A stretch of 64,000 nt of DNA from Thermoanaerobaculia bacterium (GTDB lineage Bacteria > Acidobacteriota > Thermoanaerobaculia > UBA5066 > Gp7-AA6), in contig DATKAE010000032.1 in NCBI GenBank assembly GCA_035498405.1, forward strand, positions 35,195 through 99,194. The letters run 5' to 3'. Of this stretch, positions 7,207 through 49,822 are shown in pieces. The number at the start of each line of letters is the position of its first letter. Position 1 is the stretch's first letter. The notes under the pieces were generated by a model that ran no database searches, was not told the DNA's origin, and was given only the letters and a program-made list of their open reading frames with translations. A program made the translations under genes and the position numbers.

Positions 7207-7282
7207 GACTCGCCCGCCTCGGAATACGCCAACCCGATCCGGTGTGCCTGTATTTCCGGGCCCCGGCTATACTGCCCCGTCG

Positions 7283-9606: not shown

Positions 9607-9995
9607 CGAACGAGAAGGTGCAGCTGCGGCTGCGCGTTGGGGCGGAGCAGGCCCACTACGGCGGCGGGCTCGTCGACGGCGCCTATCTGTTGAAGCTCTT
9701 CGGCGACGCGGCCACGGAGTTGCTCGTCCGGCACGACGGCGACGAGGGGCTCTTCCGGGCCTACTCATCGGTCGATTTTCTGGCGCCGGTCGTGGCGGGC
9801 GATTACCTGGAGGTCGAGGCGGAGCTTCTCCGGGTCGGGCGGACCTCGCGCGAGATGCGCTTCGAGGCGCGCAAGGTCATTACGCCCGCCGGCGGCGCCG
9901 CCTCCTCCTCGGTCCCTGTCGACCCGCCCGTCGTGGTCGCGCGGGCCACGGGCACCTGCGTGGTCCCGCTCGGACGCCAGAGGCGGAAAGCTTGA
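9603..9995 (+). CDS. kal: 3-aminobutyryl-CoA ammonia-lyase (hotdog fold)
   Basis: TTG start overlaps the kamE stop (TTGA). 130 aa. [68 protein letters not shown]...FEARKV matches the Kal family nearly residue by residue. Confidence 0.8.
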
Positions 9996-14633: not shown

Positions 14634-14634
14634 C

Positions 14635-19166: not shown

Positions 19167-19179
19167 CCGAAACGCGGTC

Positions 19180-22363: not shown

Positions 22364-23220
22364 GCCTTCTCCCCGTATTCGTAGAAGCCGCGGCCCGACT
22401 TTCGACCGTGCCGTCCGGCCAAGACCATGCGCTTCAAGAGCGGCGGCGGGGCGAAGCGCTTCTCCCGATACTCGTTGAACATGATCTCGGCGATCGCGTA
22501 GGTGGTGTCGAGCCCGACGAAGTCGAGCAGTTTCAGCGGACCCATCGGGTGGCCGCAGCCGAGCTCCATGCCGCGGTCGATGTCCTCCTTCGTCCCGACA
22601 CCCTCCTCGAGCGCCCTCACGGCGTCGAGCAGGTAGGGAACCAGAAGGCGGTTCACGATGAATCCCGAGTTGTCGCCGGCGCGGATCGGCTCCTTGCCGA
22701 GGGCGCGCGCGAAGTCGGCGACCGAATCGACGGTTTCGTCGGACGTCGCGATCGTTCGGACGACTTCCACCAGCTTCATGACGGGGACGGGATTGAAGAA
22801 GTGAAGTCCCGCGAAACGTTCCGGCCGTTTCGTGGCGGCGGAGAGCTCCGTGATGGTGAGCGAGGACGTGTTGGAGCAGAAGATCGTCTCCGGCTTGCAG
22901 AGCCGGTCGAGCTCCGCGAAAGTCTTCTTCTTGACGTCGAGATTCTCGACGATGGCCTCGATGACGATCTCGCAGTCGGAAAGATCGCCGAGCGTGGTTG
23001 TGGGCGTGACCCGTCTCCGAATCGCCTCCGCTTCTTCGGAGGTCATCTTCTTGCGCTCGACGGCGCGGGAGAGCGAAGCGTCGATGCGCCCCATCCCCTT
23101 GGAGGCGAGATCCTCCGAGACTTCACGAACCGCCGTCGGAAACCCGGCGCGCGCCGCGACCTCGGCGATCCCGGAGCCCATCAGGCCCGCTCCCAACACT
23201 CCGACCTTATGAATCTTCAT
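22360..23220 (-). CDS. hbd: 3-hydroxybutyryl-CoA dehydrogenase
   Basis: N-terminal Rossmann motif KVGVLGAGLMGSGIA; 3HCDH signature NTSSL, GLHFFNPVPVMKLVEV; C-terminal domain GMELGCGHPMGPLKLLDFVGLD. ATGA overlap with crt. Confidence 0.85.
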   Translation of the reverse strand: MKIHKVGVLGAGLMGSGIAEVAARAGFPTAVREVSEDLASKGMGRIDASLSRAVERKKMTSEEAEAIRRRVTPTTTLGDLSDCEIVIEAIVENLDVKKKTFAELDRLCKPETIFCSNTSSLTITELSAATKRPERFAGLHFFNPVPVMKLVEVVRTIATSDETVDSVADFARALGKEPIRAGDNSGFIVNRLLVPYLLDAVRALEEGVGTKEDIDRGMELGCGHPMGPLKLLDFVGLDTTYAIAEIMFNEYREKRFAPPPLLKRMVLAGRHGRKSGRGFYEYGEKA

Positions 23221-23500
23221 CGCTCGGCGGCTCCTCCTCGTCTTGGCCTCGCCCCGTCTGCCCCGGTGGCGACCCCGCGCCGCAGAACCGCTCGAGCGTC
23301 AGATCGCGGGAGAAGCCGGGGCCCGCCAGTGCCTGAAGGGGCGTATTCGGGGCAACGATAATCCAGCGATTGCCGATCCAGTGCGCGAGCGTCTCCCGGA
23401 CCAGGGAACCGTCGTTCAGGATGGCCAGAACGCCGTTCAAGTCGGCAGACCCGTGTGCGCGCAGGTCCTGGAGGAAGTCGGCCACCGCCGCCGCGCGCAC
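23207..23500 (-). CDS. small ORF of unknown function between thiolase and hbd (possible gene remnant)
   Basis: 97-codon ORF with a GTG start and GC-rich third positions, but no recognisable SD sequence. It ends in an acidic low-complexity tail overlapping the hbd start by 14 nt. It is the only open frame in the 325-nt thl-hbd spacer. Confidence 0.25.
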   Translation of the reverse strand: MRAAAVADFLQDLRAHGSADLNGVLAILNDGSLVRETLAHWIGNRWIIVAPNTPLQALAGPGFSRDLTLERFCGAGSPPGQTGRGQDEEEPPSDEDS

Positions 23501-23545
23501 GGGAAAGGAGAGGATCCGCTCCGTCCAGTTCAGCGGGCGCTCCGC

Positions 23546-24727
23546 TTACGATGGGGACTCGATGACGACGGCGATCCCCTGGCCGCCTCCGATGCAGGCT
23601 CCGGCCAGGCCGTAGCGCAACCTCCGGCGCCGCAGCTCCTTGGCGAGCGTCAGGGTGCATCGCGTACCGCTCGCTGCGAGGGGATGTCCCAAAGCGATCG
23701 CGCCGCCGTTGACGTTGAGCTTGTCGCGGTCGATCCCGAGCTCTCGCACGACCCCCAGGATCTGACCCGCAAAGGCTTCGTTGATCTCCCAGAGGTCAAT
23801 CTGGTCTATCTTGATCCCCGCCCGTTCGAGCGCCGCTCGGGCCGCCGGTGCGGGTCCCAGGCCCATCAGCTCCGGATCGCAGCCCACGACGGCCCAGGAG
23901 ACGAGCCGACACAGAGGATCGGCGCCCCGCGTCCGGGCGCGCGCCGCTGATGTCACGACGACAGCCGCCGCGCCATCGACGATACCGGAGGCGTTTCCCG
24001 CCGTGACCTGGCCGTCTTTGCCGAAGGACGGAGGCAGAAGGGCCAGCGCCTCGAGCGTCGTCTCCGGGCGGAGGTGGTCGTCCTTCGCGACAACCACGAT
24101 CTTGCGGCCCGAGCGAACCTCGACGGGCACGACCTCCTCCGACAACCGGCAGGAATCCCAGGCGGCCGCCGCCCGGCGCTGGGAGGAAAGCGCGTACTCG
24201 TCCTGCTCCTCCCGCGTGATGCCGTATTTCTTGGCCACGCGATCGGAGGTTTGCGCCATGTAGAGCCCCGTGTAGGAGTCGAGCAGGGCGACCATCAGCG
24301 AGTCCTCGAGCTGCCCTTGCCCCAGCCGGAAGCCCTTGCGGGCACCCCGGATCACGTGAGGCGCCTGCGACATGTTCTCCATGCCTCCCGCCAAGACCGT
24401 CTGCGCCTCTCCGAGCAAGATCCGATGCGCGCCCTGCACGATCGACTCGAAGCCCGACCCGCAGAGGCGGTTGACGGTCAGGGCCGGAACTTCCTTCGGA
24501 ACACCGCTCTTCAAGGCCACGTGTCGAGCCCCGTAGATCGCATCGCCGGAGGTCTGCAGGGCATTTCCGAAGATGACGTGGTCGATCTCGGCCGGCTCCG
24601 TGCCGCTTCGGTCCAGGGCCGCCTTGGACGCGTGAACTCCGAGATCGATTGCGGAGACCTCGGAGAAGGCCCCGTTGTAGTCGGCCATCGGCGTCCGAGC
24701 GCCGTCCAACAGCACGATGTCTTCCAT
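23546..24727 (-). CDS. acetyl-CoA acetyltransferase (thiolase II)
   Basis: 393 aa from internal ATG (MEDIVLLDGARTPM...). Thiolase signatures: NRLCGSG, GGMENMS, NVNGGAIALGHPLAASG, CIGGGQG. Confidence 0.85.
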   Translation of the reverse strand: MEDIVLLDGARTPMADYNGAFSEVSAIDLGVHASKAALDRSGTEPAEIDHVIFGNALQTSGDAIYGARHVALKSGVPKEVPALTVNRLCGSGFESIVQGAHRILLGEAQTVLAGGMENMSQAPHVIRGARKGFRLGQGQLEDSLMVALLDSYTGLYMAQTSDRVAKKYGITREEQDEYALSSQRRAAAAWDSCRLSEEVVPVEVRSGRKIVVVAKDDHLRPETTLEALALLPPSFGKDGQVTAGNASGIVDGAAAVVVTSAARARTRGADPLCRLVSWAVVGCDPELMGLGPAPAARAALERAGIKIDQIDLWEINEAFAGQILGVVRELGIDRDKLNVNGGAIALGHPLAASGTRCTLTLAKELRRRRLRYGLAGACIGGGQGIAVVIESPS

Positions 24728-24806
24728 GAGTCCGCGAACTATAGCAGCTTGAACCCGCGGGAATAGGCCTTGGGGGCTCGGAAGCGGAGGGCAACCCACC
24801 GAAGGA

Positions 24807-25856
24807 TCACGCTTCTCGATCCAGGACCGCGCGGTGAAACCGTCGTCGCACGTCGTTGAAGTTCACGTCTTTCGCCTCGGGATGGATCCGGTTGGTCAGG
24901 AGCACGAAGACCCGGTCGCGCCCGGGATCGATCCATACCGAGGTTCCCGTGAATCCCGTGTGCCCGAAGGCCGACTCGGAAAACTCGGGCACCGCCGAGC
25001 CCGCTCCGCGGCGTCCCTGCCAGGAGAGCCCCCGGGCTTCGGCCAGATCGGGCGTACGATCCGCCGTCCAAGCCGCTGCGGACGGATCGAGCCAGCCACG
25101 CGACAGTTTCCAGACTTCCTTCGCCGTGGCGAAGAGGCCGGCGTGCCCGGCCACACCCCCGCGGCGCAGGGCGTTTCCGTCGTGGACCTCCCCTCGGACC
25201 ACACCCTCCCGGAAGCCTCCGTACGACAGTCCGAGCGCAGAAGTCTTGCTTCGCTCGACCCGGTCGCCTTTCTCGGTCGCGGCGCAGCCCTTCGGGGAGG
25301 GCGGCAGGAACCGCGATTCCGAACCTGCCGGTGCGGCCACGAGCCCCGCGAAGCAGCGGTCGAGCGGGGCGGAGAAGAAGACTTCCAGAACCTCACCGAT
25401 GGCGAGAAAACCGAGGTCGCTGTAGATGACCGCCGAACCGGGCGCCGTCCGCGGCTCGATCTCCGAGAGGGTGCGGCGATAGGCACTGCGACCTTCGCCC
25501 CGCACATAGACTGGGTACCAGTCCGGGAGCCCGGAGGTATGCGTCAGGAGCATCTCCAGGGTGATTCCGTCGTAACGCGTCTTCTTCCACTCCGGCAGAT
25601 ACCGTCCGGGGACATCGGCCAGCGACAGCCCCCGCCCAACCGCGAGCCGAACCAGCGCCCCCGTGACGAGTGGCTTGGTCAGGCTGGCCAGGTCGAAACG
25701 GGTGTCGGCCTCGAGCGGCGTGCGCGCCGGCTCCACGGCGGCGAACCCCGCGAGGGCTTCCTCGCGGATCGAGCCCGCCGATCCGATGAGCGCGGCGGCT
25801 CCCGGAAACGATCCCGCAGCGATCTCATCCTGCAGAAAGCTCGCGAGCCCGGTCAC
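24807..25856 (-). CDS. serine hydrolase, beta-lactamase/PBP-like esterase family
   Basis: S-x-x-K motif (ASLTK), YSD and HTG-type motifs (GHTGFTG). GTG start overlaps the upstream lipoprotein stop (GTGA). Confidence 0.7.
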   Translation of the reverse strand: MTGLASFLQDEIAAGSFPGAAALIGSAGSIREEALAGFAAVEPARTPLEADTRFDLASLTKPLVTGALVRLAVGRGLSLADVPGRYLPEWKKTRYDGITLEMLLTHTSGLPDWYPVYVRGEGRSAYRRTLSEIEPRTAPGSAVIYSDLGFLAIGEVLEVFFSAPLDRCFAGLVAAPAGSESRFLPPSPKGCAATEKGDRVERSKTSALGLSYGGFREGVVRGEVHDGNALRRGGVAGHAGLFATAKEVWKLSRGWLDPSAAAWTADRTPDLAEARGLSWQGRRGAGSAVPEFSESAFGHTGFTGTSVWIDPGRDRVFVLLTNRIHPEAKDVNFNDVRRRFHRAVLDREA

Positions 25857-35776: not shown

Positions 35777-36538
35777 TCACTTGTCCTTCGATATGAAGTG
35801 TCTCAGCAGCTCGATGGGCAGCGGGAACACGATCGTCGAGTTCTTTTCGTTGGCGATCTCGGTCAGGGTCTGCAGGTACCGAAGCTGCAGCGTCGCCGGC
35901 TGCTGTCCGATGATCTCCGCCGCCTCCGACAACTTGCTCGCCGCCTGGAACTCGCCTTCCGCGTGAATGATCTTCGCACGCTTCTCTCGCTCCGCCTCCG
36001 CCTGCTTGGCCATCGCGCGCTGCATCTCGGGCGGCAGGTCGACCTGCTTCACTTCGACCAGCGACACTTTCACGCCCCAGGGGCTCGTGTGCTCATCGAT
36101 GACCTTTTGGAGGGCCACGTTCAGCTTCTCTCGCTCGGAGAGGAGCTCGTCGAGCAACGCCTGTCCGAGGATGCTCCGCAGCGTCGTTTGCGCGAGCTGC
36201 GACGTGGCGTACAGGTAGTTTTCGACCTGAACCACTGCCTTGTTCGGGTCGACGACCCGGAAGTAAACGACGGCATTGACTTTCACGGACACGTTGTCCC
36301 GCGTGATGATGTCCTGCGTCGGCACATCGTGAACGACGGTTCGCATCGAGATCCGGACCATCGTCTCGAAGGGCCAGAAGATCAAGACGAGGCCGGGCCC
36401 CTTCGCGTCGCGCGAGAGGCGGCCGAGCCAGAACGTGACGGCGCGCTCGTACTCCTTCAAGACGTTGATCCATTTGAAGAGCAAGAGCAGCCCGATGAAT
36501 CCAGCAACGAGAAGGCCGGCGGGAAAAGAGGCGGGCAT
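35777..36538 (-). CDS. SPFH/band-7 (stomatin-like) protein
   Basis: N-terminal TM plus band-7 domain ([13 protein letters not shown]..., [23 protein letters not shown], coiled-coil C-terminus). The classic NfeD-stomatin pair sits upstream. Confidence 0.8.
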
Positions 36539-37839
36539 CACGTCCTCCGTTCGACTTGAAGCGTCAAGCCATCCACGCGCGCAACTGTCACCGATTCGCC
36601 GGGATGGAGGTCCGGCGGGCCCTTCGCGTCCCAATACTCCCCGTAGATCTGCACCCGCCCTTTGCCGTCAGCGAACTCCTCGACGACGCGGGCCGTCTCC
36701 CCGAGCATCCCGGCCACACCCGTCGACGCCGGGAGGCGCCGGAGCCGGACGGTCTTGGCGGTCAGCAGAGCCACGACGCCGATCGTGAGAACGAGCGAGG
36801 GGATTAGGATCCCGAGGTCCACCCGGTACGGCGAGCCCTCTCCACGGCCCGTAAAGAGAAGCAGCGAACCCGCGACGAGGGCGATCGAGCCGCCGACCGC
36901 CAGGAGGCCGTGGCTGACGATCTTGATCTCGGCCACGAAGAGGGCGATCCCGAAGATGATCAGGAAGATGCCCGCGAGATTCACCGGGAGCACCGAAAAA
37001 GCATAAAGCGCGAGGAGCAGCGAGATTCCGCCCACGATCCCGGGCAGGATGGCGCCCGGCGAAGAGAGCTCGAAATACAGCCCCACCAAACCGAGCAGGA
37101 AGAGAACGTAGGCCACGTTCGGGTGCGAAACGGCGCCGAGGAGCTTCTCGACGTCCCCCATCTCCCGCCTCTCGATGCGAGCATCGGCCAGCCGCAATGG
37201 CGAAGGCGGGCCGCCCACGCGCTTGACCTCGCGCCCGTCGAGCTGGCTGACGAGGTCGGTCGTGTTGCGCGCCAGGATCTCGATCAGCCCCGCCGCCTTT
37301 GCCTCCGTCTCGGTATAGGAGAGACTCTTGGATACCGCCGCCTCCGCCTTCTCGACGTTACGGCCCCTCTGCGACGCGAGGGTGCGGATGAAAGCCCGAG
37401 CGTCCTGCTCGGCCTTTTGGTTCAGCGTCTTCGGGAGTTCCTGTCCCTCGCCCGCGACCGGATGCGCTGCTCCCGTGTTGGTGCCGGGCGCCATGGCCGC
37501 CACGTCCCCCGCCAGAAGCAGGAAGAACCCCGCCGAAGCCGCCTGGGCACCGGAAGGGGCCACGAAGGTCACGACGGGTACTCGGGAGAGGAGGATCGCC
37601 GAGGTCATCTCTCGAGTCGAGGAGAAGAGCCCCCCGGGAGTCGATAGCTCGAGGACCACGACCGAGGCGCCATCGTGGTCGGCTTCGCGCAGCAGCTTGG
37701 AAAGATAGTTGGCGGCCGCGGGCTGAACCGGCGTGTCGACCCGGCCCACCCGGACGAGCGCAGGCGCGGTGTCTGCGGCAGGCCCAACAGCCGATGGCCA
37801 CAGAAGCAGGAGCGCGATCCCCCAGAGCCGGGATGGCAT
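36538..37839 (-). CDS. NfeD-family membrane-bound ClpP-class serine protease (STOPP)
   Basis: Signal/[21 protein letters not shown]; ClpP-like domain ([19 protein letters not shown]...[18 protein letters not shown]); C-terminal TM bundle and OB-fold. A 1-nt overlap couples it to the stomatin gene. Confidence 0.8.
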
Positions 37840-37900
37840 GGATCGGTGGACCAACGAAAGCGATTCTATCGTAGCGCGTCCTCGCGCTATAACTGGTGGC

Positions 37901-38776
37901 GTGCGCATACGCCCCTTGGAAGGGCTGAACCTCATCGCCCTCCTCACACTCTCTCTTCTGACCCTCGTCTTTTATTCGGAGTTGAAGGAACCCGGGGAGA
38001 TTCTTCTGCGCTTCGCGCTGATGGGCGCCTTCCTCGCTCTCGCCGTCTTTCTCGCGGGGCGTCTCGAGCGGCTGCCGACCGCCATTCGCGTCGCGGTGGA
38101 TTTCTATCCGGCCGCCTTCATCCCCCTGCTGTTCGAGAGCCTCGGCCCGCTGATCACGGCCGCCCGAGGCCATGCCCGCGACGAACTGCTGATCGCGGCA
38201 GACCGCGCGCTCTTCGGCACAGACGTGACGGTTTGGCTCGAGCGGCTCGTCCGGCCGTGGCTGACGAACCTCCTCTACGTCTGTTATGCCAGCTACTACT
38301 TCCTGGGTGTTTCCCTGGCCGCCCTTCTGTGGCGCCGAAACGTCGCCGATGGTCGTCGGTTCATTTTCACACTGTCCTTCTGCTACCTCGTCTCTTACGC
38401 CGGCTACTTCACCGTGCCGGCGCTCGGGCCGCGATTCGCCCTCGCTTCCGCCCAGAGCGTGACCCTCGAGACCACGCCGCTCTCACGCGCCATCTCCACG
38501 ACGATCAACGAGCTGGAGCGCACGAAGCTCGACGTCTTCCCCTCGGGCCACACGATGATCGCGACCGCCGTCCTCCTGGTCGCCTTTCGGCGCGATCGGA
38601 GGGCCTTCTGGTTCCTGCTGCCGATCGTGGTCGGGCTGATCGTCTCGACCGTCTACTGCCGATACCACTACGTCGTCGACGTGCTGGCCGGCCTCGCGCT
38701 GGCCGTCGCGACCGTGCCCTTGGGCGATCGGATCTATGACCGCCTGGCCGACTCGGGCGAGAGCTCCTTCTCATAG
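37901..38776 (+). CDS. integral-membrane PAP2-family protein (phosphatidic-acid-phosphatase-like; AUR1/IPC-synthase-like transferase candidate)
   Basis: Six predicted TM segments. PAP2 C2/C3 motifs FPSGHT and RYHYVVDVLAGLA are present. GTG start chosen at V57 of track ORF 37733..38776, because the upstream ATG would abut the divergent NfeD start. Confidence 0.65.
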   Translation: MRIRPLEGLNLIALLTLSLLTLVFYSELKEPGEILLRFALMGAFLALAVFLAGRLERLPTAIRVAVDFYPAAFIPLLFESLGPLITAARGHARDELLIAADRALFGTDVTVWLERLVRPWLTNLLYVCYASYYFLGVSLAALLWRRNVADGRRFIFTLSFCYLVSYAGYFTVPALGPRFALASAQSVTLETTPLSRAISTTINELERTKLDVFPSGHTMIATAVLLVAFRRDRRAFWFLLPIVVGLIVSTVYCRYHYVVDVLAGLALAVATVPLGDRIYDRLADSGESSFS

Positions 38777-39897
38777 ACCCGATAGGTCTTGTACGGCTTT
38801 CCGCCCCAGAGCCGCATCCCCCGAACCATCAGGTCGTTTTCCTCGAGGACCCAGGAAACCTCGCAGCCGGTGTAGCCGCGCTCGAGCGCCGTGCGCACAC
38901 TCTGCTCGAAGAGAAGAGACTGCAATCCACGCGATCGGTACTCCTTCTTGACGCCGAAGGCCAGCACCCGAACCGTGCGGATTCGTCGCGTGCCCAGGAG
39001 AAACTTCAGCCATCCGAACGGCAGGAGGCGCCCCTTGAGCGGGGCCATCGCCGTGTTGTAGTCGGGCAAGGTCAGCATGAAGGCGACCGGCTCGCGAGCT
39101 CCGTCAGGCCCCACGAACTCGCCCAGAAGCGTGAACCCCTCGACGAGAAGCGGCTTCAACCGCATGGCCATGTAATCCATCTCCTCAGGCGTCATCGGGA
39201 CGAATCCCCAATTCTTCTCCCACGCCGCGTTGTAGACCTCGCGCACGCGCGGCAGATCCCGCTTCAAGCTCCCCTTGGTGACCTTGTGAACTTGAAAACC
39301 CTGCTCGTTCCGTCGGACGCGCTCGTTGATCTTCTGGAAACGCTTGATCGGCTCCGGACCGATGTCGAACCAGAAGGCGAGCAGGTCCTTTGCCTTCCGA
39401 AGGCCCGCGCCTTCGCACAGGGCCGGGTAGTAACGCGGGTTGTAGGTCATCATCAGAACGGGCGCCGAGTCGAACCCCTCCACGAGCAGCCCCACCTCGT
39501 CGTTGAGCGAGGGGTTGACCGGGCCGCGCAGAGTCGCCATCTTCCGCTCTCGGACCCATAAGGCGGCCGCATCGAAGAGCGCCTGCGCGACCGCCGGATC
39601 ATTCACCGACTCGAAGTAGCCGAAGAAGCCCGTCTTCTCGCCCTGGAACTCATTGTGGTGGCGATCCAGGATCGCCGCGATCCGGCCCACATCGACCCCA
39701 CCGCGTCGCGCCAGGAAGAGCTGCATCTCGGCGTGCCGGAAAAAGGGGTTGTCCAGGACGAAAACCTTCGCCAAGTCGGCGCGGATCGGGGGCACCCAGT
39801 GCGGGTCGCCGGCGTAGATCGCGTCGGCGACGTCGAAGAACCGGTCTAGCTCCCTACGGCTCCGCCCGATTCGTTCGATTGCGATCGCCTGGCTCAT
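38734..39897 (-). CDS. GNAT-fold N-acyltransferase of about 387 aa (candidate bacterial ceramide-synthase-like enzyme)
   Basis: A large two-lobed protein with a C-terminal GNAT core (LAFGVKKEYRSRGLQSLLFEQSVRTALERGYTGCEVSWVLEENDLM). It is the last gene of the spt-containing operon. Confidence 0.6.
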   Translation of the reverse strand: MSQAIAIERIGRSRRELDRFFDVADAIYAGDPHWVPPIRADLAKVFVLDNPFFRHAEMQLFLARRGGVDVGRIAAILDRHHNEFQGEKTGFFGYFESVNDPAVAQALFDAAALWVRERKMATLRGPVNPSLNDEVGLLVEGFDSAPVLMMTYNPRYYPALCEGAGLRKAKDLLAFWFDIGPEPIKRFQKINERVRRNEQGFQVHKVTKGSLKRDLPRVREVYNAAWEKNWGFVPMTPEEMDYMAMRLKPLLVEGFTLLGEFVGPDGAREPVAFMLTLPDYNTAMAPLKGRLLPFGWLKFLLGTRRIRTVRVLAFGVKKEYRSRGLQSLLFEQSVRTALERGYTGCEVSWVLEENDLMVRGMRLWGGKPYKTYRVYEKELSPESARRS

Positions 39898-39918
39898 CCG
39901 GTGCGGAGAGAGAGGCGG

Positions 39919-41175
39919 TCAGACAGTGGCAGTCTGAAGCACGCCGACTTGGCGGCCAACGCGCGCAAAGGTGTCGAGGGCGCGTGAAAGTTGGTCGCGT
40001 GTGTGCGTCGCCATCAGGGACGTTCGGATCAGCGCTCTGCCCGGCGGCGTCGCGGGCGACAGCACGCAGTTGACGAAGATCCCCTCTTCTTGGAGGCGTT
40101 GCACCATCTTCAGGGCGACGAGATCCTCGCCGACGACCACCGGAACGACCGGTGTCTGCGAGTCACCCGTGTCGAATCCCAGGGATCGGAGTCCGCTGGC
40201 GAAGAACCGCGTGTTCTCCCACAGCCACTGTCGCCTCTCCGGCTCGTGCTCCATGATTTCGACCGTGGCGAGCGCGGCGGCCACCGAAGCCGGCGGCGGT
40301 GCGGCCGAAAACATCATCGAACGGGCGCGGTGCTTGATGTAGTCGATGACGACGGCATCGCCCGCGATGAACCCGCCGACGGAAGCCATCGACTTGGAGA
40401 ACGTGCCCATGATCAAGTCGACCTCGTCCTCGAGACCGAAGTGCTCGGCGGTGCCCCGCCCCGTCGGTCCGAGCACGCCGATCCCGTGGGCATCGTCGAC
40501 CATCAGGCCCGCTTCGAATTCACGCGCGGCAACGACGAGCTCCGGAAGGGGCGCGACATCCCCCTCCATCGAGAACACGCCGTCCACGACGATGAATCGC
40601 CCCTTCGCGTCCGTGTCGTTCTTCATCTGCCGCCGCAGATCCGCGACATCGCAGTGCCGGAACTTGCAGATCTCGCCGAAGGAGAGCCGTGCCCCGTCGA
40701 TGATGCAGGCGTGGTCCTGTTTATCGAGATAGACGGTGTCCCCTTTTCCCACCAGGCAGGAAATCGCGCCCAGATTCACCTGGAAGCCGGTAGCAAAGAT
40801 GATCGCTGCCTCCTTCCGGATGAACTCGGCCAGCCTTTCCTCGAGCTTGACGTGCAGGTCGAGCGTTCCGTTCAGAAAGCGGCTGCCGGCACAACCCGAG
40901 CCGTACTTGCGGATCGCCTCGATGGCCGCCTCCTTGACCCGGGGATCGTTGGTGAGGCCGAGGTAGTTGTTGGAGCCCAGCATCAGCAGGCGCCGCCCGC
41001 CCATCAAGACTTCCGGGTCCTGCGCCGATTCCACGACTCGGAAGAACGAATAGACGCCTGCCCGGCGGATCCGTCCCGCGTCGTCGTACCGTTCACATTT
41101 TTCGAAGAACGGGGAAGATCGCACCACTCCCCCCCTGGCCGCTGCGGCAGCGAGCTTGGTCATTCTCTCTCCCAC
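39919..41175 (-). CDS. spt: serine palmitoyltransferase-like alpha-oxoamine synthase (PLP-dependent)
   Basis: Collinear similarity to bacterial SPT rather than BioF/Kbl: LMLGSNNYLGLTNDPRVKEAAIEAIRKYGSGCAGSRFLNGT; PLP-lysine motif GTFSKSMASVGGF; FSAAPPPASVAAALATVEIM; FVNCVLSPATPPGRALIRTSLMATHT. Confidence 0.7.
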   Translation of the reverse strand: MGERMTKLAAAAARGGVVRSSPFFEKCERYDDAGRIRRAGVYSFFRVVESAQDPEVLMGGRRLLMLGSNNYLGLTNDPRVKEAAIEAIRKYGSGCAGSRFLNGTLDLHVKLEERLAEFIRKEAAIIFATGFQVNLGAISCLVGKGDTVYLDKQDHACIIDGARLSFGEICKFRHCDVADLRRQMKNDTDAKGRFIVVDGVFSMEGDVAPLPELVVAAREFEAGLMVDDAHGIGVLGPTGRGTAEHFGLEDEVDLIMGTFSKSMASVGGFIAGDAVVIDYIKHRARSMMFSAAPPPASVAAALATVEIMEHEPERRQWLWENTRFFASGLRSLGFDTGDSQTPVVPVVVGEDLVALKMVQRLQEEGIFVNCVLSPATPPGRALIRTSLMATHTRDQLSRALDTFARVGRQVGVLQTATV

Positions 41176-41215
41176 CTTCGAGGACTAAAAACGCTCCATT
41201 GGATCTTAGCAAATT

Positions 41216-42202
41216 TTACAAATTCAACCACCCCTGGCGGGAGTACCAATCCCAGGTTTCACGAAGCCCCGATTGCAGCGGCAACGGGGGCGGCAGCTCC
41301 AGTTCCTGGCGCAGCCCCGCCTCGCAAGTCCATTCCCCTGCAAGGAGTTCCCGTGCCTTGTCGGCGTTGAAGGCCCGCGACCGTCCTGTCAGTTTCTCGC
41401 GCAGCGTTTCAGCGAGTCCGAGGGCTCTTACGGCCGCCCCGGGGACTGGAAAGAGCCGCGCTCTCTTGGCCGGCAGGCTCGCGATGCATGCGGCGAGCGC
41501 ACCGACGGTGACCGGCTCGGGGTCGCAAAGGAAGGCCGTCCGGCCGTGGAGATCACGGCGACCCGCTGCCCGCGCGACCGCCATGGAAACCTGGGCCGCT
41601 GCGCCGATCTGGATGTGAGAGGAGGCGGCCGGCACGGGCAGCCACCCGGAGCTCGCCATCCGAAAGTATGCGAGCAGTCCCCTGTCTCCCGGGCCATAGA
41701 TCACGCCGGGCCGGAGGACGACCCACGGCCCCTTCCAGCCCGCCCGCAGCGCCGCCTCTCCCTCGAGCTTCGAGATTCCGTACCAGGAGACGGGCCGCGC
41801 GGGGTCATCGGGACCCACGGGTCGTCCTTCGCGTGCCGGTCCCGCGGCGGCTTGGCTCGATACCAGCACGAACATCGCTTCGGCGGCCACACCCGCCGCG
41901 GCGGCGAGCAGGCGCTGCGTGCCCCGAAGGTTCACTTCTCGGTACTCTTCCAACGTCCGCGCTTTGAGCCGGCCCGCCGCGTGGACGACCGCGTCGCACC
42001 CCGAAGCGGCCGAGGCAAGATCCGCCCCCGAGGACAGGTCGGCGCGAACGATTTCCAGGGGGAGGCCCTCGAGCAGAGGCGACCGCGACGGATCCCCGCG
42101 GGCGAGCGCCCTGACATGCCATCCCTCGGCAATCAGGGCGCGTGCAAGATGCCCGCCGACAAATCCGGTGGCGCCGGTCAGGAGGGCGAGCCGGGTGGCC
42201 AT
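41216..42202 (-). CDS. NAD(P)-dependent epimerase/dehydratase-family (extended SDR) oxidoreductase; candidate 3-ketodihydrosphingosine/ceramide reductase
   Basis: Rossmann motif LLTGATGFVGGHL; catalytic YxxxK (YGISK). Confidence 0.75.
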   Translation of the reverse strand: MATRLALLTGATGFVGGHLARALIAEGWHVRALARGDPSRSPLLEGLPLEIVRADLSSGADLASAASGCDAVVHAAGRLKARTLEEYREVNLRGTQRLLAAAAGVAAEAMFVLVSSQAAAGPAREGRPVGPDDPARPVSWYGISKLEGEAALRAGWKGPWVVLRPGVIYGPGDRGLLAYFRMASSGWLPVPAASSHIQIGAAAQVSMAVARAAGRRDLHGRTAFLCDPEPVTVGALAACIASLPAKRARLFPVPGAAVRALGLAETLREKLTGRSRAFNADKARELLAGEWTCEAGLRQELELPPPLPLQSGLRETWDWYSRQGWLNL

Positions 42203-42230
42203 CGTCGCGGGTGCGAAAGCAGGGCGCTCC

Positions 42231-43421
42231 TCAGTTTGCCGACCACGCCGCCAGGCGCCGTATCCCCTCCTCTACCCTCTCCATGCCGGTCGCAAACGAG
42301 AAGCGCACGCACGCATCATTCCCAAAGGCATCGCCGGGCACCGCCGCCACGCGCGCTTCCCGCAAGAGACGCTCGCAGAAGGAGGCCGAGCCGGAGACCC
42401 CCTTCGGCCCGAACAGAGCCGACACGTCGGCGAACGCGTAGAAAGAGCCCTGCGGCCAGCAGGCGCGCACGCCTCGGATCCCCTGCAGGCCCTCGATCAT
42501 CGCTTTCCGCCTCCGCGTGTATTGAGCCAGCATCTCGCCAACCGACCGTTCGGTTCGCTCCGGGTCTTTCAAGGCCGCGAGAACGGCGGCCTGCGAGATC
42601 GAGGAGGCGTTCGAGGTCGAGTGGCTCTGGAAGGACGTCATCGCCGCAACGATGTCCTGCGGCCCCGCGGCCCAGCCCAGACGCCAGCCGGTCATGGCGT
42701 AAGTCTTGGACGCCGCGCCGGTGACGACGACTCGGTCGCGGTGCTCGGCAAACGCCGCGGCCGAAACATGCCGGTGGTCGTCGTAGAGGAATCGGTCGTA
42801 GGTTTCATCGAAGATCAGGAAGGCGTCGTGCGACGCACACCAGTCGAGGAGACGCCCGATCTCTTCGGGGGGTGTGACGGCCCCGGTCGGGTTGTTCGGG
42901 GAGTTGACGATGACGCCGCGGATCGGCTCCGTCGCCGAAGCGGCGAGTCGTTGGGCGGTGACCTGCCATCCCGAGTCGAGATCCGTCGAGACCAGAACGG
43001 GCTCCGCACCGGATAGGCGAACGATCTCCGGGAAGGAGACCCAATACGGAGAGAAGATCGCGACCCGATCGCCCTCCTGGAAGAGAGCCTGGCACGCATT
43101 GAAGACCGCCTGCTTGGCCCCCGCCGTCACCACCACATTCTCGCGAGCAAAGCCGGCGCCCTGCTCGTTCCGGTATTTCTCGGCGATCGCGTCCCGCAGC
43201 GCGGGCTCGCCCGCGACGTCCGTGTACTTCGTTCGGCCCGCACCGATGGCGGCGACCCCGGCCTCCGCGACGAACCGCGGCGTGGCGAAGTCCGGCTCCC
43301 CGAGACCGAAGTCCACCACGTCCGCGCCCGATGCCGCCAGGGCCTTCGCGGCCCGGGCGACGGCGGCGGTCGACGACGGCCGAAGCTCGACGGCTCGCTT
43401 CGACAGCCGGGGGTGGCTCAT
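42231..43421 (-). CDS. class-I aminotransferase (aspartate aminotransferase family)
   Basis: 396 aa from internal ATG (MSHPRLSKRAVEL...). Signatures: NSPNNPTG, PLP-Lys region VVVTGAASKTYAMTGWRLGW. Confidence 0.8.
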   Translation of the reverse strand: MSHPRLSKRAVELRPSSTAAVARAAKALAASGADVVDFGLGEPDFATPRFVAEAGVAAIGAGRTKYTDVAGEPALRDAIAEKYRNEQGAGFARENVVVTAGAKQAVFNACQALFQEGDRVAIFSPYWVSFPEIVRLSGAEPVLVSTDLDSGWQVTAQRLAASATEPIRGVIVNSPNNPTGAVTPPEEIGRLLDWCASHDAFLIFDETYDRFLYDDHRHVSAAAFAEHRDRVVVTGAASKTYAMTGWRLGWAAGPQDIVAAMTSFQSHSTSNASSISQAAVLAALKDPERTERSVGEMLAQYTRRRKAMIEGLQGIRGVRACWPQGSFYAFADVSALFGPKGVSGSASFCERLLREARVAAVPGDAFGNDACVRFSFATGMERVEEGIRRLAAWSAN

Positions 43422-44614
43422 CGGCGCCCCTTCCACGTGCGCGAAAACGCCGCGAAGGCCAGGATCCTCTTCCGGCCGACGGCGACCAGCATCAGCTCCG
43501 CTCCGATCCATCCACCATACACGTACAGCATCACATGACGCGACGCGGGAACCAAGAACTGGATCAGCCACAAGAGGAATAGGCCGATCGCCTCGTACGC
43601 CTCGAGATCCATCGAGGCCAGGAAGATCCAGCCGAGAAACGCCTGCAGGATCGTCAGCAGAATCTCGCTTCGCTGGAAGGCGTCGAAGGGGAGCGGCTCG
43701 CTCGAGCCGTGAGACCAACAATAGATGACCGCGAGCAGTCCCGAGAGGATTCCCCACTGATTGATGTTGGAGGAGACCATGTTCATCAGAGCGACAGGGG
43801 CCCTGGTCACACGGCGCGCCCAAGCGAAGGCGGACGTCTTCTCGGGGAACTCCGACAGAAACGGGGCCACCCATTGAATGAACACGAATTGCGAAATGCC
43901 GAGGCCGGTGGCCAGGGCCAGCATGGAGCGCAGAAACGGCTCGGCCACGAAGAAGATCACGGCGCCCCCTCCCCCGAGCAGCAAGAGAACCGCCCCCCAC
44001 CGTTTGGCTCCCCGATGCGACAGGGCCCAGCGGGAGACGGCGGGGATCTCCTCGTCCTGCTCGAGTGTTTCCTCACGCGGCGGAATGCGCAGCAGCACGG
44101 CGAGGTAGATGACGTACGTCGCCGCCAAGACGACGGCGTCCACGAGCGAGAGACTCCCCTTCGCCCAAACGACGACGAAATAGGCCAAGGGCGGAAGCAA
44201 CCCCAACACCTCGATCGCATGATCGTCGGAGAGCCGCAAGGTGCCCAACCGCTGGGACCGCCGCTTGCGGGAGTAGTACGCCGCAACCGCGTAGATCATG
44301 GGCCAACCGAGTCCCGTCAGAAGTCGGAGACTGCCGGTGAAGTTCGCAATCGCCAGATGGACCATCTCGGGATTCTTGCCGGCCTTCCAGGCGATCACCG
44401 CCTCGACCGCGAACTCCGGAGCGGTCTGAATCAGGGCGAGGACAGCCAGCGCGAGCCCTTGCGACATCAGGAACTCCGCCGCCTCGGCTCCCCAGGCGAC
44501 GAGGAACGCGGAGCCGATCATGGCCGGGAAGGTCCAGAGGGCCGAGAGGGGTGTGCCGGCCGCGGCACCGTGGCCCGCGAGGGCGGCGGGCAGACTCGCC
44601 CGCGGTCGCTTCAT
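43418..44614 (-). CDS. polytopic membrane protein, possible CaCA-like cation exchanger
   Basis: About 11 TM segments. Two internal repeats with alpha-repeat-like motifs (IQTAPEFAVEAV and IQWVAPFLSEFPE). ATGA overlap with the aminotransferase start. Family call is tentative. Confidence 0.45.
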   Translation of the reverse strand: MKRPRASLPAALAGHGAAAGTPLSALWTFPAMIGSAFLVAWGAEAAEFLMSQGLALAVLALIQTAPEFAVEAVIAWKAGKNPEMVHLAIANFTGSLRLLTGLGWPMIYAVAAYYSRKRRSQRLGTLRLSDDHAIEVLGLLPPLAYFVVVWAKGSLSLVDAVVLAATYVIYLAVLLRIPPREETLEQDEEIPAVSRWALSHRGAKRWGAVLLLLGGGGAVIFFVAEPFLRSMLALATGLGISQFVFIQWVAPFLSEFPEKTSAFAWARRVTRAPVALMNMVSSNINQWGILSGLLAVIYCWSHGSSEPLPFDAFQRSEILLTILQAFLGWIFLASMDLEAYEAIGLFLLWLIQFLVPASRHVMLYVYGGWIGAELMLVAVGRKRILAFAAFSRTWKGRR

Positions 44615-44630
44615 CGCGGCGGGTTATAGC

Positions 44631-45440
44631 ATGCGAGATATGCCCGGCATCGAGTCTGCCTCGAATCCACTCATTCGCGAGATTCTCCGGTCGATCGAGA
44701 ATCGCACCCACTTCCTGCTCGAAGGCGAGAAGCCGATCCTCGAGGCGGTCGCCGCGGGTCTGGGACTCGAGCATGTGCTTCACGACGAGAGCGTGCGGCC
44801 GGGCCGGCTGGCGGCCGCGGCCGCGGCGCGGCCGAAGCTCGTGTCCCGCGGCGTGCTCGAGCGTCTAGCCGAGACGAAGACGCCTCAGCACTTGCTGGCT
44901 GTGGTCCGCCGGCGCGACCTGCCCGTGGCCGAGATCCTCGGCCGTCCGGGACCGGTCGTCTTTCTCTTCGGCTTGCAAGATCCCGGCAATCTCGGCGCCG
45001 TCGTTCGCGTCGCCGAGGCCACCGGATGCGCGGGTGTGTTGACGGCGGCGGGGTCGGCGGACTTCTTTCATCCGCGCGCCGTCCGCGCGAGCGCCGGCAG
45101 CGTCTTGCGTATCCCGGTCTCGGGAAGGGTCTCCTTCGAACCCTTCGCTCGGGACGCCAAGGAGGCGGGGCGGCTTCTCTGCGGTGCCGTCCCATCGGGC
45201 GGTGAGGACCCCTTTGGGGCGCCGCTGCCGGCGGCCTCTGTCCTCGTGATCGGATCGGAGGGAACGGGGCTGCCGGCAGGCGCCTACCGTTATCTCGACC
45301 GGCGCGTCACGATTCCGATGCAGGCGCCGGTTGATTCCCTGAATGCGGCCGTTGCCGCGGCCCTGGTCCTTTATGCGGCCAAGTTGGCGGTCGCCTCCCC
45401 CGCTCTCTCGGGAGCGGAGTCTCGCGACGGGCCGAGTTAG
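44631..45440 (+). CDS. TrmH/SpoU-family RNA 2'-O-methyltransferase
   Basis: SPOUT motifs: VVFLFGLQDPGNLGAVVRVAEATGCAGVL, VLVIGSEGTGLP, IPMQAPVDSLNAAVAAALVLY. Confidence 0.75.
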   Translation: MRDMPGIESASNPLIREILRSIENRTHFLLEGEKPILEAVAAGLGLEHVLHDESVRPGRLAAAAAARPKLVSRGVLERLAETKTPQHLLAVVRRRDLPVAEILGRPGPVVFLFGLQDPGNLGAVVRVAEATGCAGVLTAAGSADFFHPRAVRASAGSVLRIPVSGRVSFEPFARDAKEAGRLLCGAVPSGGEDPFGAPLPAASVLVIGSEGTGLPAGAYRYLDRRVTIPMQAPVDSLNAAVAAALVLYAAKLAVASPALSGAESRDGPS

Positions 45441-48862: not shown

Positions 48863-49822
48863 TCAGATCGAAACGATGTATCCCCCGCTCTTGACGTCCT
48901 TCTTCATCGTGATCAGCTTCTGACGCTCGGCGTCCTCGAGCAGCTCCGAGAACGACCGGTAGCCGTAGTACGACTCGTTGAAATAGGGCTGCTTGCGCTG
49001 CATCGTCTGCTTGATCATCGAACCCCAGATCACGTCGTAGTTTTCGCGCTGGAGCGCCTGCATCGAGTCGAGCATCAGCCGGAAGAGCTCCCGCTTCTTT
49101 TCGGGAAAGTTCTCGATCGACGGCAGTGACCGCGTCTCGCGCACCAGATCTTCATAGAAGATGAATTCATCGCAATTGGACAGCAGGAGGTCCGAGGTCG
49201 AATTCTTGACCCCCACGCCGATGACGCCCTTGTCGTTCTCCTTGAGCTTCGAGACCAGCGGCGAAAAGTCGGAGTCTCCCGAGCAGACCACGAAGGTCGT
49301 GATGTGCGACTTGGAGGCCGCCAGGTCCATCGCGTCGACGACCATCCGGATATCGGCCGAGTTCTTCCCGGTGTAGTTGCGTTGCGGAATGTCGATCAGC
49401 TCGATCGCCGCCTCGTGGAATTCGCGCTTGTACTCTGAGTAGCGGGTCCAGTCCGCGTACGCCTTCTTGTACACGATCCGCCCCTTCTCGATCAGCCGCT
49501 GCAGGACCAGATTGATGTCGAACTTCTTGTATTGCGCATCGCGAACGCCGAGCGCGATGTTCTCGAAATCGATGAACAGGGCCAGGCGTTGGTCGACCGC
49601 GCTCCGAGCCGGCGGAGCGGGATTGACGGTGACCGGTGCGGCGGCCGGCGCGACCAGCACCGGAGCGGGCGGAGCCGGAGTCGCGGGTTCATGCGCCGAG
49701 CGGCCTTCATCGGGGGCGGCCGGGCGGCCCTTGTGGCGCCGCGAGCCGCCTCGCCGGCGCCGTCCCTTCTTTTCGCTTTCTCCGCTTTCCGCGGCGGGAA
49801 AGGGAATCGTGTCGTCACTCAT
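48863..49822 (-). CDS. NYN (LabA-like) nuclease-domain protein with C-terminal OST-HTH/LOTUS domain
   Basis: 319 aa from internal ATG. N-terminal basic tract; NYN core (LALFIDFENIALG..., DAMDLAASKSHITTFVVCSGDSDFSPLVSKLKENDKGVIGVG); C-terminal LOTUS-like helical domain. Confidence 0.7.
   Translation of the reverse strand: MSDDTIPFPAAESGESEKKGRRRRGGSRRHKGRPAAPDEGRSAHEPATPAPPAPVLVAPAAAPVTVNPAPPARSAVDQRLALFIDFENIALGVRDAQYKKFDINLVLQRLIEKGRIVYKKAYADWTRYSEYKREFHEAAIELIDIPQRNYTGKNSADIRMVVDAMDLAASKSHITTFVVCSGDSDFSPLVSKLKENDKGVIGVGVKNSTSDLLLSNCDEFIFYEDLVRETRSLPSIENFPEKKRELFRLMLDSMQALQRENYDVIWGSMIKQTMQRKQPYFNESYYGYRSFSELLEDAERQKLITMKKDVKSGGYIVSI

Follow-up and report, generated by a model that had tools for sequence, protein, structure and literature searches.

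In Caulobacter crescentus the genes of the ceramide pathway encode a serine palmitoyltransferase (Spt; CCNA_01220/CC_1162), a bacterial ceramide synthase (bCerS; CCNA_01212/CC_1154) and a ceramide reductase (CerR; CCNA_01222/CC_1164), and a sphingolipid locus equivalent to that of Caulobacter is present in E. coli UTI89-type strains. In B. fragilis, CerS and CerR are BF9343_4218 and BF9343_4240, respectively. The Caulobacter pathway was reportedly described by Stankeviciute et al. in 2022 and by Olea-Ozuna et al. in 2021. Its three enzyme classes are also encoded at the locus analyzed here. We consider this region, with a probability of about 0.8, to be a compact bacterial sphingolipid pathway predicted to produce dihydroceramide and to equip it with a phospho-headgroup. 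The core of this reading, a cluster of an Spt-like enzyme with CerR-class, bCerS-class and PAP2 proteins, had been proposed in an earlier note on this DNA and survived sequence-based attempts to refute it.

Within the window (the whole stretch of 64,000 nucleotides that was analyzed, part of a Thermoanaerobaculia-like genome of the Acidobacteriota), the minus-strand genes between 42202 and 38734 encode an extended-SDR reductase, an alpha-oxoamine synthase (AOS) and a 387-aa tandem-GNAT protein. They are preceded on the same strand by genes for a polytopic membrane protein and a class-I aminotransferase, and a PAP2 gene on the plus strand converges on the end of the run. All genes listed in the earlier note were found at or very near the places it had given. 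The convergent 3' overlap of the PAP2 and GNAT genes, put there at about 43 nt, spans 38734..38776 and measures exactly 43 nt. Intergenic distances along the minus-strand run are -4, 28, 40 and 21 nt, which is consistent with a single transcription unit. A scan of 37500..45000 found no sigma-70-like promoter, and terminator-like matches were weak. GC3 values of 0.77-0.85 in the called frames, in a genome of 65-70% GC, indicate that the genes are real.

The alpha-oxoamine synthase

The AOS (39919..41175, minus strand, 418 aa) matches Pfam Aminotran_1_2 with 198 bits; a second possible ATG lies 12 nt downstream of its start. Its host lineage falls outside the taxa that trained the NCBIfam Spt models.

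The best NCBIfam model for the AOS is SerpalmtaseCFB (559.2 bits), followed by a BioF/Kbl-family subfamily (440 bits), SerpalmtaseBetaP (410.7 bits), Kbl (403 bits), BioF (394 bits) and AlphaP (330 bits). Its top PDB match is the Sphingobacterium multivorum SPT (SmSPT; 464 bits; about 52% identical across 379 columns of the trimmed alignment), ahead of Thermus BioF/Kbl (341 bits), Sphingomonas SPT (296-301 bits), CFAT (282 bits) and Kbl (277 bits). The enzyme stays under the curated Spt equivalog cutoffs (559.2 versus 640 for NF047600, 410.7 versus 500 for BetaP and 330 versus 670 for AlphaP), and at 559 versus 640 bits for NF047600 the name Spt is therefore not given under the NCBI equivalog rule. 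A neighbor-joining tree (no bootstrap) placed the AOS inside the SPT clade together with SmSPT and all GNAT-linked AOSs, with Kbl and BioF outside. In an alignment to 8GUH/3A2B the GTFSKS motif, previously pointed out as the PLP site and confirmed here, holds the equivalent of SmSPT Lys244, and the DHA (His138) and VDDAH (Asp210/His213) motifs are kept.

The enzyme might instead be a housekeeping BioF or Kbl lying beside an unrelated GNAT and SDR, with no lipid pathway at all. BioF and Kbl models do match it, at 394-403 bits, and a score under the Spt equivalog cutoff would fit such an identity. However, matches to the Spt models and to the SPT structure are 120-190 bits stronger, the AOS falls among the SPTs in the tree, and neither bio nor tdh genes adjoin it. 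The linkage of AOS, GNAT and SDR across phyla, together with the fusion proteins described below, goes beyond chance. We regard a BioF or Kbl identity as extremely improbable. The likeness to bacterial serine palmitoyltransferase and not to BioF/Kbl, claimed before from the sequence, thus held up in NCBIfam (559 versus 394-403 bits) and in the PDB (464 versus 277-341 bits), and the phylogenetic placement that had been asked for agrees with it. From its sequence, the AOS is a predicted serine palmitoyltransferase of the Bacteroidota/CFB type.

Acyltransferase, reductase and their linkage

The 387-aa GNAT protein (38734..39897, minus strand) belongs to the very large YghO family (7511 representatives at E<=1e-3). 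The protein itself had no Pfam, NCBIfam or PDB sequence match; its relatives match Pfam Acetyltransf_1. Its AF2 model (pLDDT 84) shows a tandem-GNAT fold and resembles the tandem-GNAT structures 2WPW, 7Q3A and 5KF1 (E 1e-17 to 1e-13). We found 35% identity to E. coli YghO over 97% of the length, and 37% identity to a full-length homologue from Roseomonas that is encoded beside lptF/G. The loci of these two proteins carry Spt, ACP, a fatty acyl-AMP ligase (FAAL), an epimerase and LptF/G paralogues, a gene content that matches the one published for the sphingolipid locus of Caulobacter/E. coli UTI89. With 600 and 639 bits, the AOSs of the E. coli and Roseomonas loci exceed the NCBIfam cutoff of 500 for an Spt equivalog. 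The GNAT protein is thus a predicted bCerS-like N-acyltransferase, the likeness being drawn through the E. coli and Roseomonas proxies and not through CCNA_01212 or BF9343_4218 themselves.

The SDR (41216..42202, minus strand, 328 aa) belongs to the NAD-dependent epimerase/dehydratase family (Pfam Epimerase, 89.5 bits) and has intact motifs, TGATGFVGG at residues 9-17 and YGISK (YxxxK) at residue 141. Its best NCBIfam match, HpnA, is weak. Over its full length it shares 33.6% and 28.5% identity with the epimerase-family genes of the Roseomonas and E. coli loci, respectively (E 2e-28), and the SDRs of those clusters match no other protein of the window. The N-terminus opens directly with the Rossmann motif and has no obvious signal peptide; Caulobacter CerR is reported as a periplasmic, peripheral-membrane protein. 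We predict a CerR-like reductase, where the comparison was with the genes in the CerR position of the E. coli and Roseomonas loci and not with CCNA_01222. The resemblance of the GNAT and SDR to enzymes of sphingolipid loci, suggested before by enzyme class, is hence found by proxy, as homology to the E. coli and Roseomonas locus genes.

Linkage was counted in a set of 80 GNAT loci drawn from many phyla, 53 of which had adequate flanks (>= 3 kb on both sides). An Spt-like AOS was encoded near the GNAT in 55/80 loci and within 3 kb in 54/80. Of the 53 adequately flanked loci, 42 had it beside the GNAT, and the remaining 11 had no AOS within 10 kb of the GNAT. An SDR homologue lay next to the GNAT in 52/80 loci, and AOS and SDR occurred together in 48/80. 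The earlier note had held that GNAT and SDR genes present ubiquitously without spt would speak against the pathway, and this is not the pattern observed, with an AOS at 55/80 loci and at 42/53 of those with adequate flanks. Natural fusions of an Spt-like AOS with a GNAT (P0134, P0230 and P0197) further indicate that the two activities are linked.

Amino acid substrate and the upstream genes

Upstream of the SDR lies a class-I, AspC-like aminotransferase gene (42231..43421, minus strand, 396 aa; Pfam Aminotran_1_2, 251 bits), which scores about 340 bits, below cutoffs, against the NCBIfam aspartate transaminase model. The open reading frame extends 5' as far as 44000, but this extension is spurious; the gene starts with the ATG at 43421, and its start and the stop of the gene upstream overlap by 4 nt. 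This upstream gene (43418..44614, minus strand, 398 aa), the first of the co-oriented run, encodes a Na_Ca_ex-family polytopic membrane protein with two repeats (Pfam Na_Ca_ex, 77.8 bits) and about nine hydrophobic segments.

The aminotransferase had led to the idea that the amino acid substrate is not serine. The AOS would then use cysteate, Ala, Gly or the product of the aminotransferase and yield a sulfonolipid, a 1-deoxy base or another aminolipid. The aminotransferase gene is indeed directly upstream, co-oriented and separated by short gaps, the fold of CFAT/SulA is the SPT fold (PMC9304779), and bacterial SPTs can accept Ala or Gly, with low efficiency (PMC10196870). The active site argues otherwise. 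The AOS is identical to SmSPT at Asn52, Gly80-Ser81-Arg-Phe-Leu-Asn85, His138, Ser185, Asp210/Ala212/His213, Thr241/Ser243/Lys244 and Met271/Phe272. The roles of these residues are given in PMC10196870, according to which the contacts to L-serine include Asn52, Gly80/Ser81, His138, Ser243 and Met271. Lys281 is diagnostic of SulA (PMC9304779); the corresponding SmSPT residue, Ala274, is also Ala in the AOS, where FSAA aligns to FSAS. CFAT, moreover, scores 282 bits compared to 464 bits for SPT.

Nor does the aminotransferase behave as a partner of the cluster. It looks generic, of the AspC type, accompanies the GNAT in 6/80 loci, within 3 kb in 1/80, and is set apart in several close relatives: in loci L005, L009 and L010 it is about 3 kb from the SDR, and in L005 the gap holds unrelated genes. 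The Na_Ca_ex gene occurs in 4/80 GNAT loci, all from close relatives. Both genes are probably co-transcribed with the cluster here and represent lineage-specific neighbors and not pathway components. Their earlier assignment to the operon therefore stands as far as the co-oriented run is concerned and fails for conserved membership, as they are confined to the closest relatives (6/80 and 4/80 loci). This distribution leaves the proposal of a non-serine substrate or sulfonolipid unsupported, and the identical SmSPT active-site residues and the Ala at the SulA Lys281 position argue against it. We judge another amino acid substrate very unlikely and retain L-serine as the predicted one.

The PAP2 protein, the proposed pathway and known systems

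The reading frame of the PAP2 gene is open over 37733..38776 on the plus strand. As its homologues have 285-300 aa, a GTG start at 37901 (37901..38776, 291 aa) is plausible. The product is a polytopic membrane protein of the PAP2_3 (Aur1/Ipt1-type) family (PF14378, 79.6 bits versus a cutoff of 27; PAP2_C, 30.7 bits). We count about eight hydrophobic helices and not the six transmembrane segments first assigned. The S-G-H and R-x-H-x3-D motifs (S215-G216-H217, H256 and D260) are invariant among 29 homologues. The gene is repeatedly linked to the cluster, with a PAP2_3 gene near the GNAT in 32/80 loci, and in Bryobacteraceae it lies between the SDR and GNAT genes.

The catalytic core is common to PAP2 phosphatases, and the protein may be a plain lipid phosphate phosphatase of the PgpB/LpxE/undecaprenyl-diphosphatase type. 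It would then have no part in the pathway, or would dephosphorylate ceramide-1-phosphate or a long-chain-base phosphate. Its whole-protein architecture, however, is like that of IPC synthase rather than of PAP2 phosphatases, and two independent structure-comparison methods returned Aur1 as the top match of the predicted structure, covering almost the whole protein. Sequence identity to Aur1, IPC synthase and BT_1522 is only 17-20%, and the score against the phosphoinositol dihydroceramide synthase equivalog NF052609 is 21.8 bits versus a cutoff of 480, which makes the protein a remote relative of BT_1522 and not its orthologue. We consider a phosphatase possible, if rather unlikely. Transfer of a head group onto ceramide is most likely the function, in line with the membrane transferase class first suggested.

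From the observed identities and homologies of the genes, their conserved linkage and the matches in fold, we infer the substrates, the order of the reactions and the products as follows. Spt (39919..41175) would form 3-ketodihydrosphingosine by condensing L-serine and a long-chain acyl thioester. This thioester is probably acyl-CoA, since genes for a dedicated ACP or acyl-ACP synthetase are missing from the vicinity and since the enzyme most resembles the Bacteroidota type, which uses acyl-CoA. The tandem-GNAT protein (38734..39897) would then N-acylate 3-ketodihydrosphingosine, and the SDR (41216..42202) would use NAD(P)H to reduce the 3-keto group, yielding dihydroceramide, an order of N-acylation and reduction borrowed from the Caulobacter literature. 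Finally, the PAP2_3 protein (37901..38776) would most likely move a phospho-alcohol from a glycerophospholipid onto ceramide via its His-His-Asp site, possibly yielding phosphoinositol-, phosphoethanolamine- or phosphoglycerol-ceramide. Because the window carries no inositol-synthesis genes (MIPS, PI synthase), a head group other than inositol is possible.

Compared with Caulobacter, the window AOS, GNAT and SDR are full-length homologues of genes in E. coli and Roseomonas loci that are built like the Caulobacter one. Unlike in Caulobacter, the three genes are contiguous here; a search near them found no dedicated ACP (AcpR), acyl-ACP synthetase/fatty acyl-AMP ligase (AasR), LptF2/G2/C2 paralogues or flippase gene, all of which set the Caulobacter locus apart, and the Caulobacter head-group genes are replaced by the Aur1-like PAP2 gene. 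The predicted Spt lies on the CFB branch (559 bits) and not on the proteobacterial branch (BetaP 411, AlphaP 330 bits); the closest characterized enzyme is SmSPT (PDB 3A2B/8GUH; 464 bits, about 52% identity), with identical residues at the active-site positions checked. A GNAT of Bacteroides finegoldii (H28) matches the window GNAT over its full length with 30% identity, and whereas the three genes are dispersed in Bacteroidota genomes according to the literature, they are adjacent in the window. SulA/CFAT of sulfonolipid synthesis (Alistipes PDB 7U7H; CFAT 28EH) shares the AOS fold and PLP chemistry, but has Lys281 in place of Ala and scores much lower (265-282 bits). Yeast Aur1 (PDB 9IVC) and IPC synthase (9VJ4) belong to the PAP2_3 family as well and have the SGH and HxxxD residues in common with the window protein, which differs from them in having no Kei1-like partner; for B. 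thetaiotaomicron BT_1522, a phosphoinositol-dihydroceramide synthase, the match to the equivalog profile is weak. The locus is thus a new example of the known three-enzyme ceramide system and not a new kind of system, and its conserved Aur1-like partner is the sole modestly new element of the cluster.

Layout of the predicted lipid gene cluster

Because the window has a GC content of 65-70%, we used third-position GC to recognize spurious ORFs. The region from 37.7 to 44.6 kb contains a tightly packed minus-strand run (gaps of -4, 28, 40 and 21 nt) encoding a Na_Ca_ex membrane protein (43418..44614), a class-I aminotransferase (42231..43421), an epimerase-family reductase (SDR, 41216..42202), an alpha-oxoamine synthase (AOS, 39919..41175) and a 387-aa protein (GNAT, 38734..39897). 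The aminotransferase begins with the ATG at 43421, in a 4-nt overlap with the stop of the upstream gene; a 589-codon ORF reaching out to 44000 was discarded as a spurious extension. A plus-strand PAP2_3/PAP2_C protein (37901..38776) runs convergent to these genes and ends at 38776, inside the 387-aa gene, so that the two genes share 43 nt at their 3' ends. The GTG start at 37901 proposed in the earlier note is supported by the length of the PAP2 homologues (285-300 aa). Every gene observed there was confirmed at or close to its coordinates, as was the PAP2-GNAT overlap; the sole correction concerns the PAP2 protein, which has approximately eight hydrophobic helices instead of six. Housekeeping genes flank the cluster: NfeD/Band7, Lnt and RF-2 at one end, a SpoU methylase at the opposite end. 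A scan of 37500..45000 returned no promoter-like sites and weak terminator-like matches, and neither an ACP nor an acyl-ACP synthetase was found in the window among GC3-supported ORFs or by Pfam scans.

Elsewhere in the window, genes at 6968-8842 (+), 17865-19226 (-) and 22360-24862 (-) encode a D-lysine 5,6-aminomutase alpha subunit (733 bits), an HMGL-like enzyme, a 3-hydroxyacyl-CoA dehydrogenase and a thiolase, which hints at lysine fermentation or a butyrate-type route encoded upstream of the lipid cluster. A XerC/D-type tyrosine recombinase (16846-17916, minus strand; Phage_integrase, 166 bits) and an NYN-domain/OST-HTH protein (48863-49750, minus strand) have no obvious tie to it.

Candidate enzymes for ceramide synthesis

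The best NCBIfam match of the AOS was the Bacteroidota-type serine palmitoyltransferase (Spt) equivalog NF047600 with 559 bits, which falls short of the curated cutoff of 640; a BioF/Kbl-family subfamily (440 bits), SerpalmtaseBetaP (411), Kbl (403) and BioF (394) followed. Searched against all PDB sequences, the AOS matched Sphingobacterium multivorum SPT best (464 bits), ahead of Thermus BioF/Kbl (341), the Sphingomonas SPTs (296-301), cysteate-C-fatty acyltransferase (CFAT, 282) and Kbl (277). When the alignment was compared with the roles assigned to residues in the S. multivorum structures (PMC10196870), we found identity at Asn52, the Gly80-Ser81-Arg-Phe-Leu-Asn85 loop, His138, Ser185, Asp210/Ala212/His213, Thr241/Ser243/Lys244 and Met271/Phe272. 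A single position is reported to part the sulfonolipid enzyme SulA (Lys281) from Spt (Ala) (PMC9304779). The AOS carries Ala at this position and the sulfonolipid/CFAT reading was therefore rejected. In a neighbor-joining tree built without bootstrap from the window AOS, 21 GNAT-linked AOSs of other phyla, three structure-derived references and E. coli BioF and Kbl, the window AOS and S. multivorum SPT fell into one clade with the proteobacterial SPTs as sister and Kbl/BioF outside. Scores and tree thus exclude a BioF or Kbl, and at the sequence level the AOS is predicted to be an Spt. An exact-sequence lookup of the AOS in the contig index had no match.

The 387-aa protein had no match in Pfam, NCBIfam or PDB sequence searches, and its family is very large (7511 representatives at 50% clustering with E<=1e-3). 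Tblastn against plasmid records related it to E. coli YghO (35% identity over 97% of its length) and to a Roseomonas gene mis-named 'dATP pyrophosphohydrolase' (37% identity). Both loci encode an AOS, an acyl carrier protein, a fatty acyl-AMP ligase and an NAD-dependent epimerase-family protein as well as second LptF/LptG copies and a flippase-like protein. This is the composition of the published Caulobacter sphingolipid locus (aasR, cerR, acpR, spt, cerS, lptF2/G2; PMC11324152), and a Klein-lab preprint draws the same type of locus for E. coli UTI89. The AOSs of the E. coli and Roseomonas loci score above the NCBIfam Spt equivalog cutoff (600 and 639 versus 500 bits). When the Roseomonas locus was searched with NCBIfam, the protein in the position of the bacterial ceramide synthase (bCerS) had no match and that in the position of the ceramide reductase (CerR) had weak generic matches only. 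This suggests that NCBIfam has no bCerS or CerR model, which accounts for the empty search with the window protein.

Three protein-library representatives (P0134, P0230 and P0197) are natural AOS-GNAT fusions of 648-780 aa; in P0134 and P0230 the AOS portion has the CFB-type Spt model as its best match. Such fusions connect the first two ceramide-synthesis steps in Rosetta-stone fashion. The AlphaFold model of the 387-aa protein (pLDDT 84) is a two-domain GNAT and most closely matches the tandem-GNAT proteins 2WPW, 7Q3A and 5KF1. Based on the plasmid matches, the fusions and the predicted fold, we regard the protein as a putative bCerS-family member, by proxy via the E. coli and Roseomonas loci. 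Other domain arrangements in the family include a double GNAT of 784 aa (P0121) and a PilZ-GNAT fusion (P0258).

YghO is a pseudogene without assigned function in K-12 and belongs to this bCerS-type GNAT family. In non-K-12 E. coli, yghO adjoins a complete Caulobacter-type sphingolipid locus beside the glc operon (spt, ACP, epimerase, fatty acyl-AMP ligase and lptF/lptG paralogues), as in strain PN43 (L003, NZ_MG591698.1, 2567-13122). The label of the Roseomonas orthologue, located on Roseomonas marmotae plasmid p1318-4 (L002), looks like a propagated mis-annotation.

The SDR carries TGxxGxxG and YxxxK motifs and aligns over its full length with the epimerase-family proteins of the Roseomonas (34% identity) and E. 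coli (28%) loci (E 2e-28). In the reverse search these two proteins matched nothing else in the 64-kb window. Otherwise its best curated-family match was a weak one to HpnA, and we classify it as a putative CerR-like reductase.

In the pathway we propose, Spt would condense serine with an acyl thioester to 3-ketodihydrosphingosine, the GNAT would N-acylate this product, the SDR would reduce the 3-keto group and the PAP2_3 enzyme would add a phospho-alcohol head group in the membrane. Acylation before reduction is an order borrowed from the Caulobacter work. The acyl donor is probably acyl-CoA, since neither a dedicated ACP nor a ligase accompanies the genes and Spt is nearest to the acyl-CoA-using Sphingobacterium enzyme. 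All of this chemistry is inferred; what the sequences show is homology, conserved active-site residues, linkage and fusion of the genes, and predicted fold.

Conservation of the neighborhood

A genome scan with the GNAT alignment returned 80 loci, which were searched by tblastn with the six window proteins. The loci stem from Acidobacteriota, Rokubacteria, Verrucomicrobiota, Nitrospirota, Gemmatimonadota, Zixibacteria, Calditrichota, Ignavibacteria/Bacteroidota and Planctomycetota as well as delta-proteobacterial and other genomes. An Spt-like AOS was found near the GNAT in 55 of the 80 loci (54 within 3 kb), and in 42 of the 53 loci flanked by 3 kb or more on either side of the GNAT. The SDR was near the GNAT in 52 loci, AOS and SDR together in 48 and a PAP2_3 homologue in 32 (31 within 3 kb). 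The aminotransferase (6/80) and the Na_Ca_ex protein (4/80) were confined to the closest relatives. In three close relatives the aminotransferase lies ~3 kb from the SDR, and in the one checked (L005) unrelated genes occupy the gap.

The recurring orders are SDR-AOS-GNAT, the same with a convergent PAP2 gene as in the window, and SDR-PAP2-GNAT-AOS on one strand in Bryobacterales. In the Bryobacteraceae locus L028 (7883-13323) the last order, confirmed by Pfam, consists of overlapping genes, and it occurs likewise in L024, L027, L031, L040, L042, L053 and L080. An aldo/keto reductase follows the L028 cluster.

Counts and gene orders thus define the conserved unit as SDR, Spt and GNAT, with or without PAP2_3. 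Linkage and fusion tie the GNAT family, including YghO, to Spt. The aminotransferase and the exchanger are local neighbors and were rejected as pathway members because they are not conserved with the cluster. The earlier note had taken the aminotransferase as a hint of a substrate other than serine; neither its distribution nor the Ala in the AOS supports this idea.

On an Acidobacteriota chromosome (L064, OY761556.1, ~9992-15712) GNAT and SDR accompany a far more divergent AOS (199 bits, 36% identity) that falls outside the SPT clade near Kbl/BioF in the neighbor-joining tree; this may be a variant cluster with a different condensing enzyme or substrate. Seven loci with close GNAT homologues (L011, L012, L014-L016, L025 and L026; 45-51% identity), mostly of Verrucomicrobiota and including an Akkermansia muciniphila MAG, have no AOS or SDR within 10 kb of the GNAT. 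Either the pathway genes are dispersed there as in Bacteroidota, or the GNAT subfamily acts on another substrate in these organisms.

The PAP2 protein and comparison with known sphingolipid loci

The PAP2 protein matches PAP2_C, the sphingomyelin-synthase C-terminal model, and PF14378 (PAP2_3), which is the Aur1/Ipt1 family. It also has a faint match, far under the cutoff (E 1e-4), to the Bacteroides phosphoinositol-dihydroceramide synthase equivalog; BT_1522 has this function (PMC9246714). S-G-H217 and R254-x-H256-x3-D260 are invariant in 29 PAP2 homologues; many of the tblastn alignments from the 80 loci stop before the C3 motif. The AlphaFold model (pLDDT 89) was set against solved structures by two methods, and at E<=1e-3 Foldseek returned just two of them: yeast Aur1 (9IVC) and a further complex of an IPC synthase with ceramide (9VJ4). 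The protein lacks the lysine of the phosphatase C1 motif. That it is a plain lipid phosphatase is a live but rather unlikely rival reading. Sequence and structure matches together with the conserved linkage make a ceramide phospho-headgroup transferase the best reading, which we favor somewhat. No inositol-synthesis genes were found in the window, so the head group may not be inositol.

A second PAP2 protein (6262-7266, minus strand), whose ORF overlaps the start of the neighboring plus-strand ORF, has a generic PF01569 match only (68 bits), not PAP2_3, and is presumably an ordinary lipid phosphatase. Directly beyond the PAP2_3 gene lies an NfeD-Band7 (SPFH) membrane-scaffold pair (35777-37947, minus strand), an adjacency also seen in L001, a relative of 2.86 Mb. 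For NfeD, annotated as a 469-aa ORF, a later start at MPSRLWG... is probable; a short intergenic stretch would then separate it from the divergent PAP2 gene.

Taken together, the Aur1-like PAP2_3 protein, CerR, Spt and bCerS might form a self-contained four-gene 'complex sphingolipid cassette', with PAP2_3 as an uncharacterized bacterial ceramide phospho-headgroup synthase (probability about 0.5). The PAP2 gene is convergent in Thermoanaerobaculia and embedded (SDR-PAP2-GNAT-AOS) in Bryobacterales. If this reading is true, the cassette is spread over Acidobacteriota, Nitrospirota, Myxococcota-like, Gemmatimonadota and Verrucomicrobiota genomes, and abundant uncultured soil phyla would have membranes with phosphosphingolipids but not the ACP/FAAL/Lpt accessory genes that Proteobacteria carry. 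It offers a concrete candidate for the head-group enzyme of such lipids in soil phyla. Acidobacteriota sphingolipids, if confirmed, would bear on environmental lipid biomarkers and on the outer-membrane biology of abundant, poorly cultured bacteria. The window genes, which carry only generic names at present, gain a predicted function from this analysis, for bCerS by proxy.

How bacteria make ceramide with Spt, bCerS and CerR was established only in 2021-2022. Metagenomic work has already predicted, for ~40 phyla, 'Spt-like' genes that lie together with bCerS and CerR (PMC11334938). The triad is thus an established pathway of which the window locus is a further example, and it comes as no surprise to find it in a Thermoanaerobaculia-like acidobacterium. 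Our literature search found no paper tying Acidobacteriota to sphingolipid genes beyond this survey, and the supplements of the Black Sea paper contain no Acidobacteriota entries. Unlike the Caulobacter and E. coli loci, the window locus has a CFB-branch Spt and an Aur1-like PAP2 protein, and ACP, acyl-AMP ligase and Lpt paralogues are absent from it. In contrast to Bacteroidota, its genes are contiguous. The recurrent Aur1-like partner may be the sole new element.
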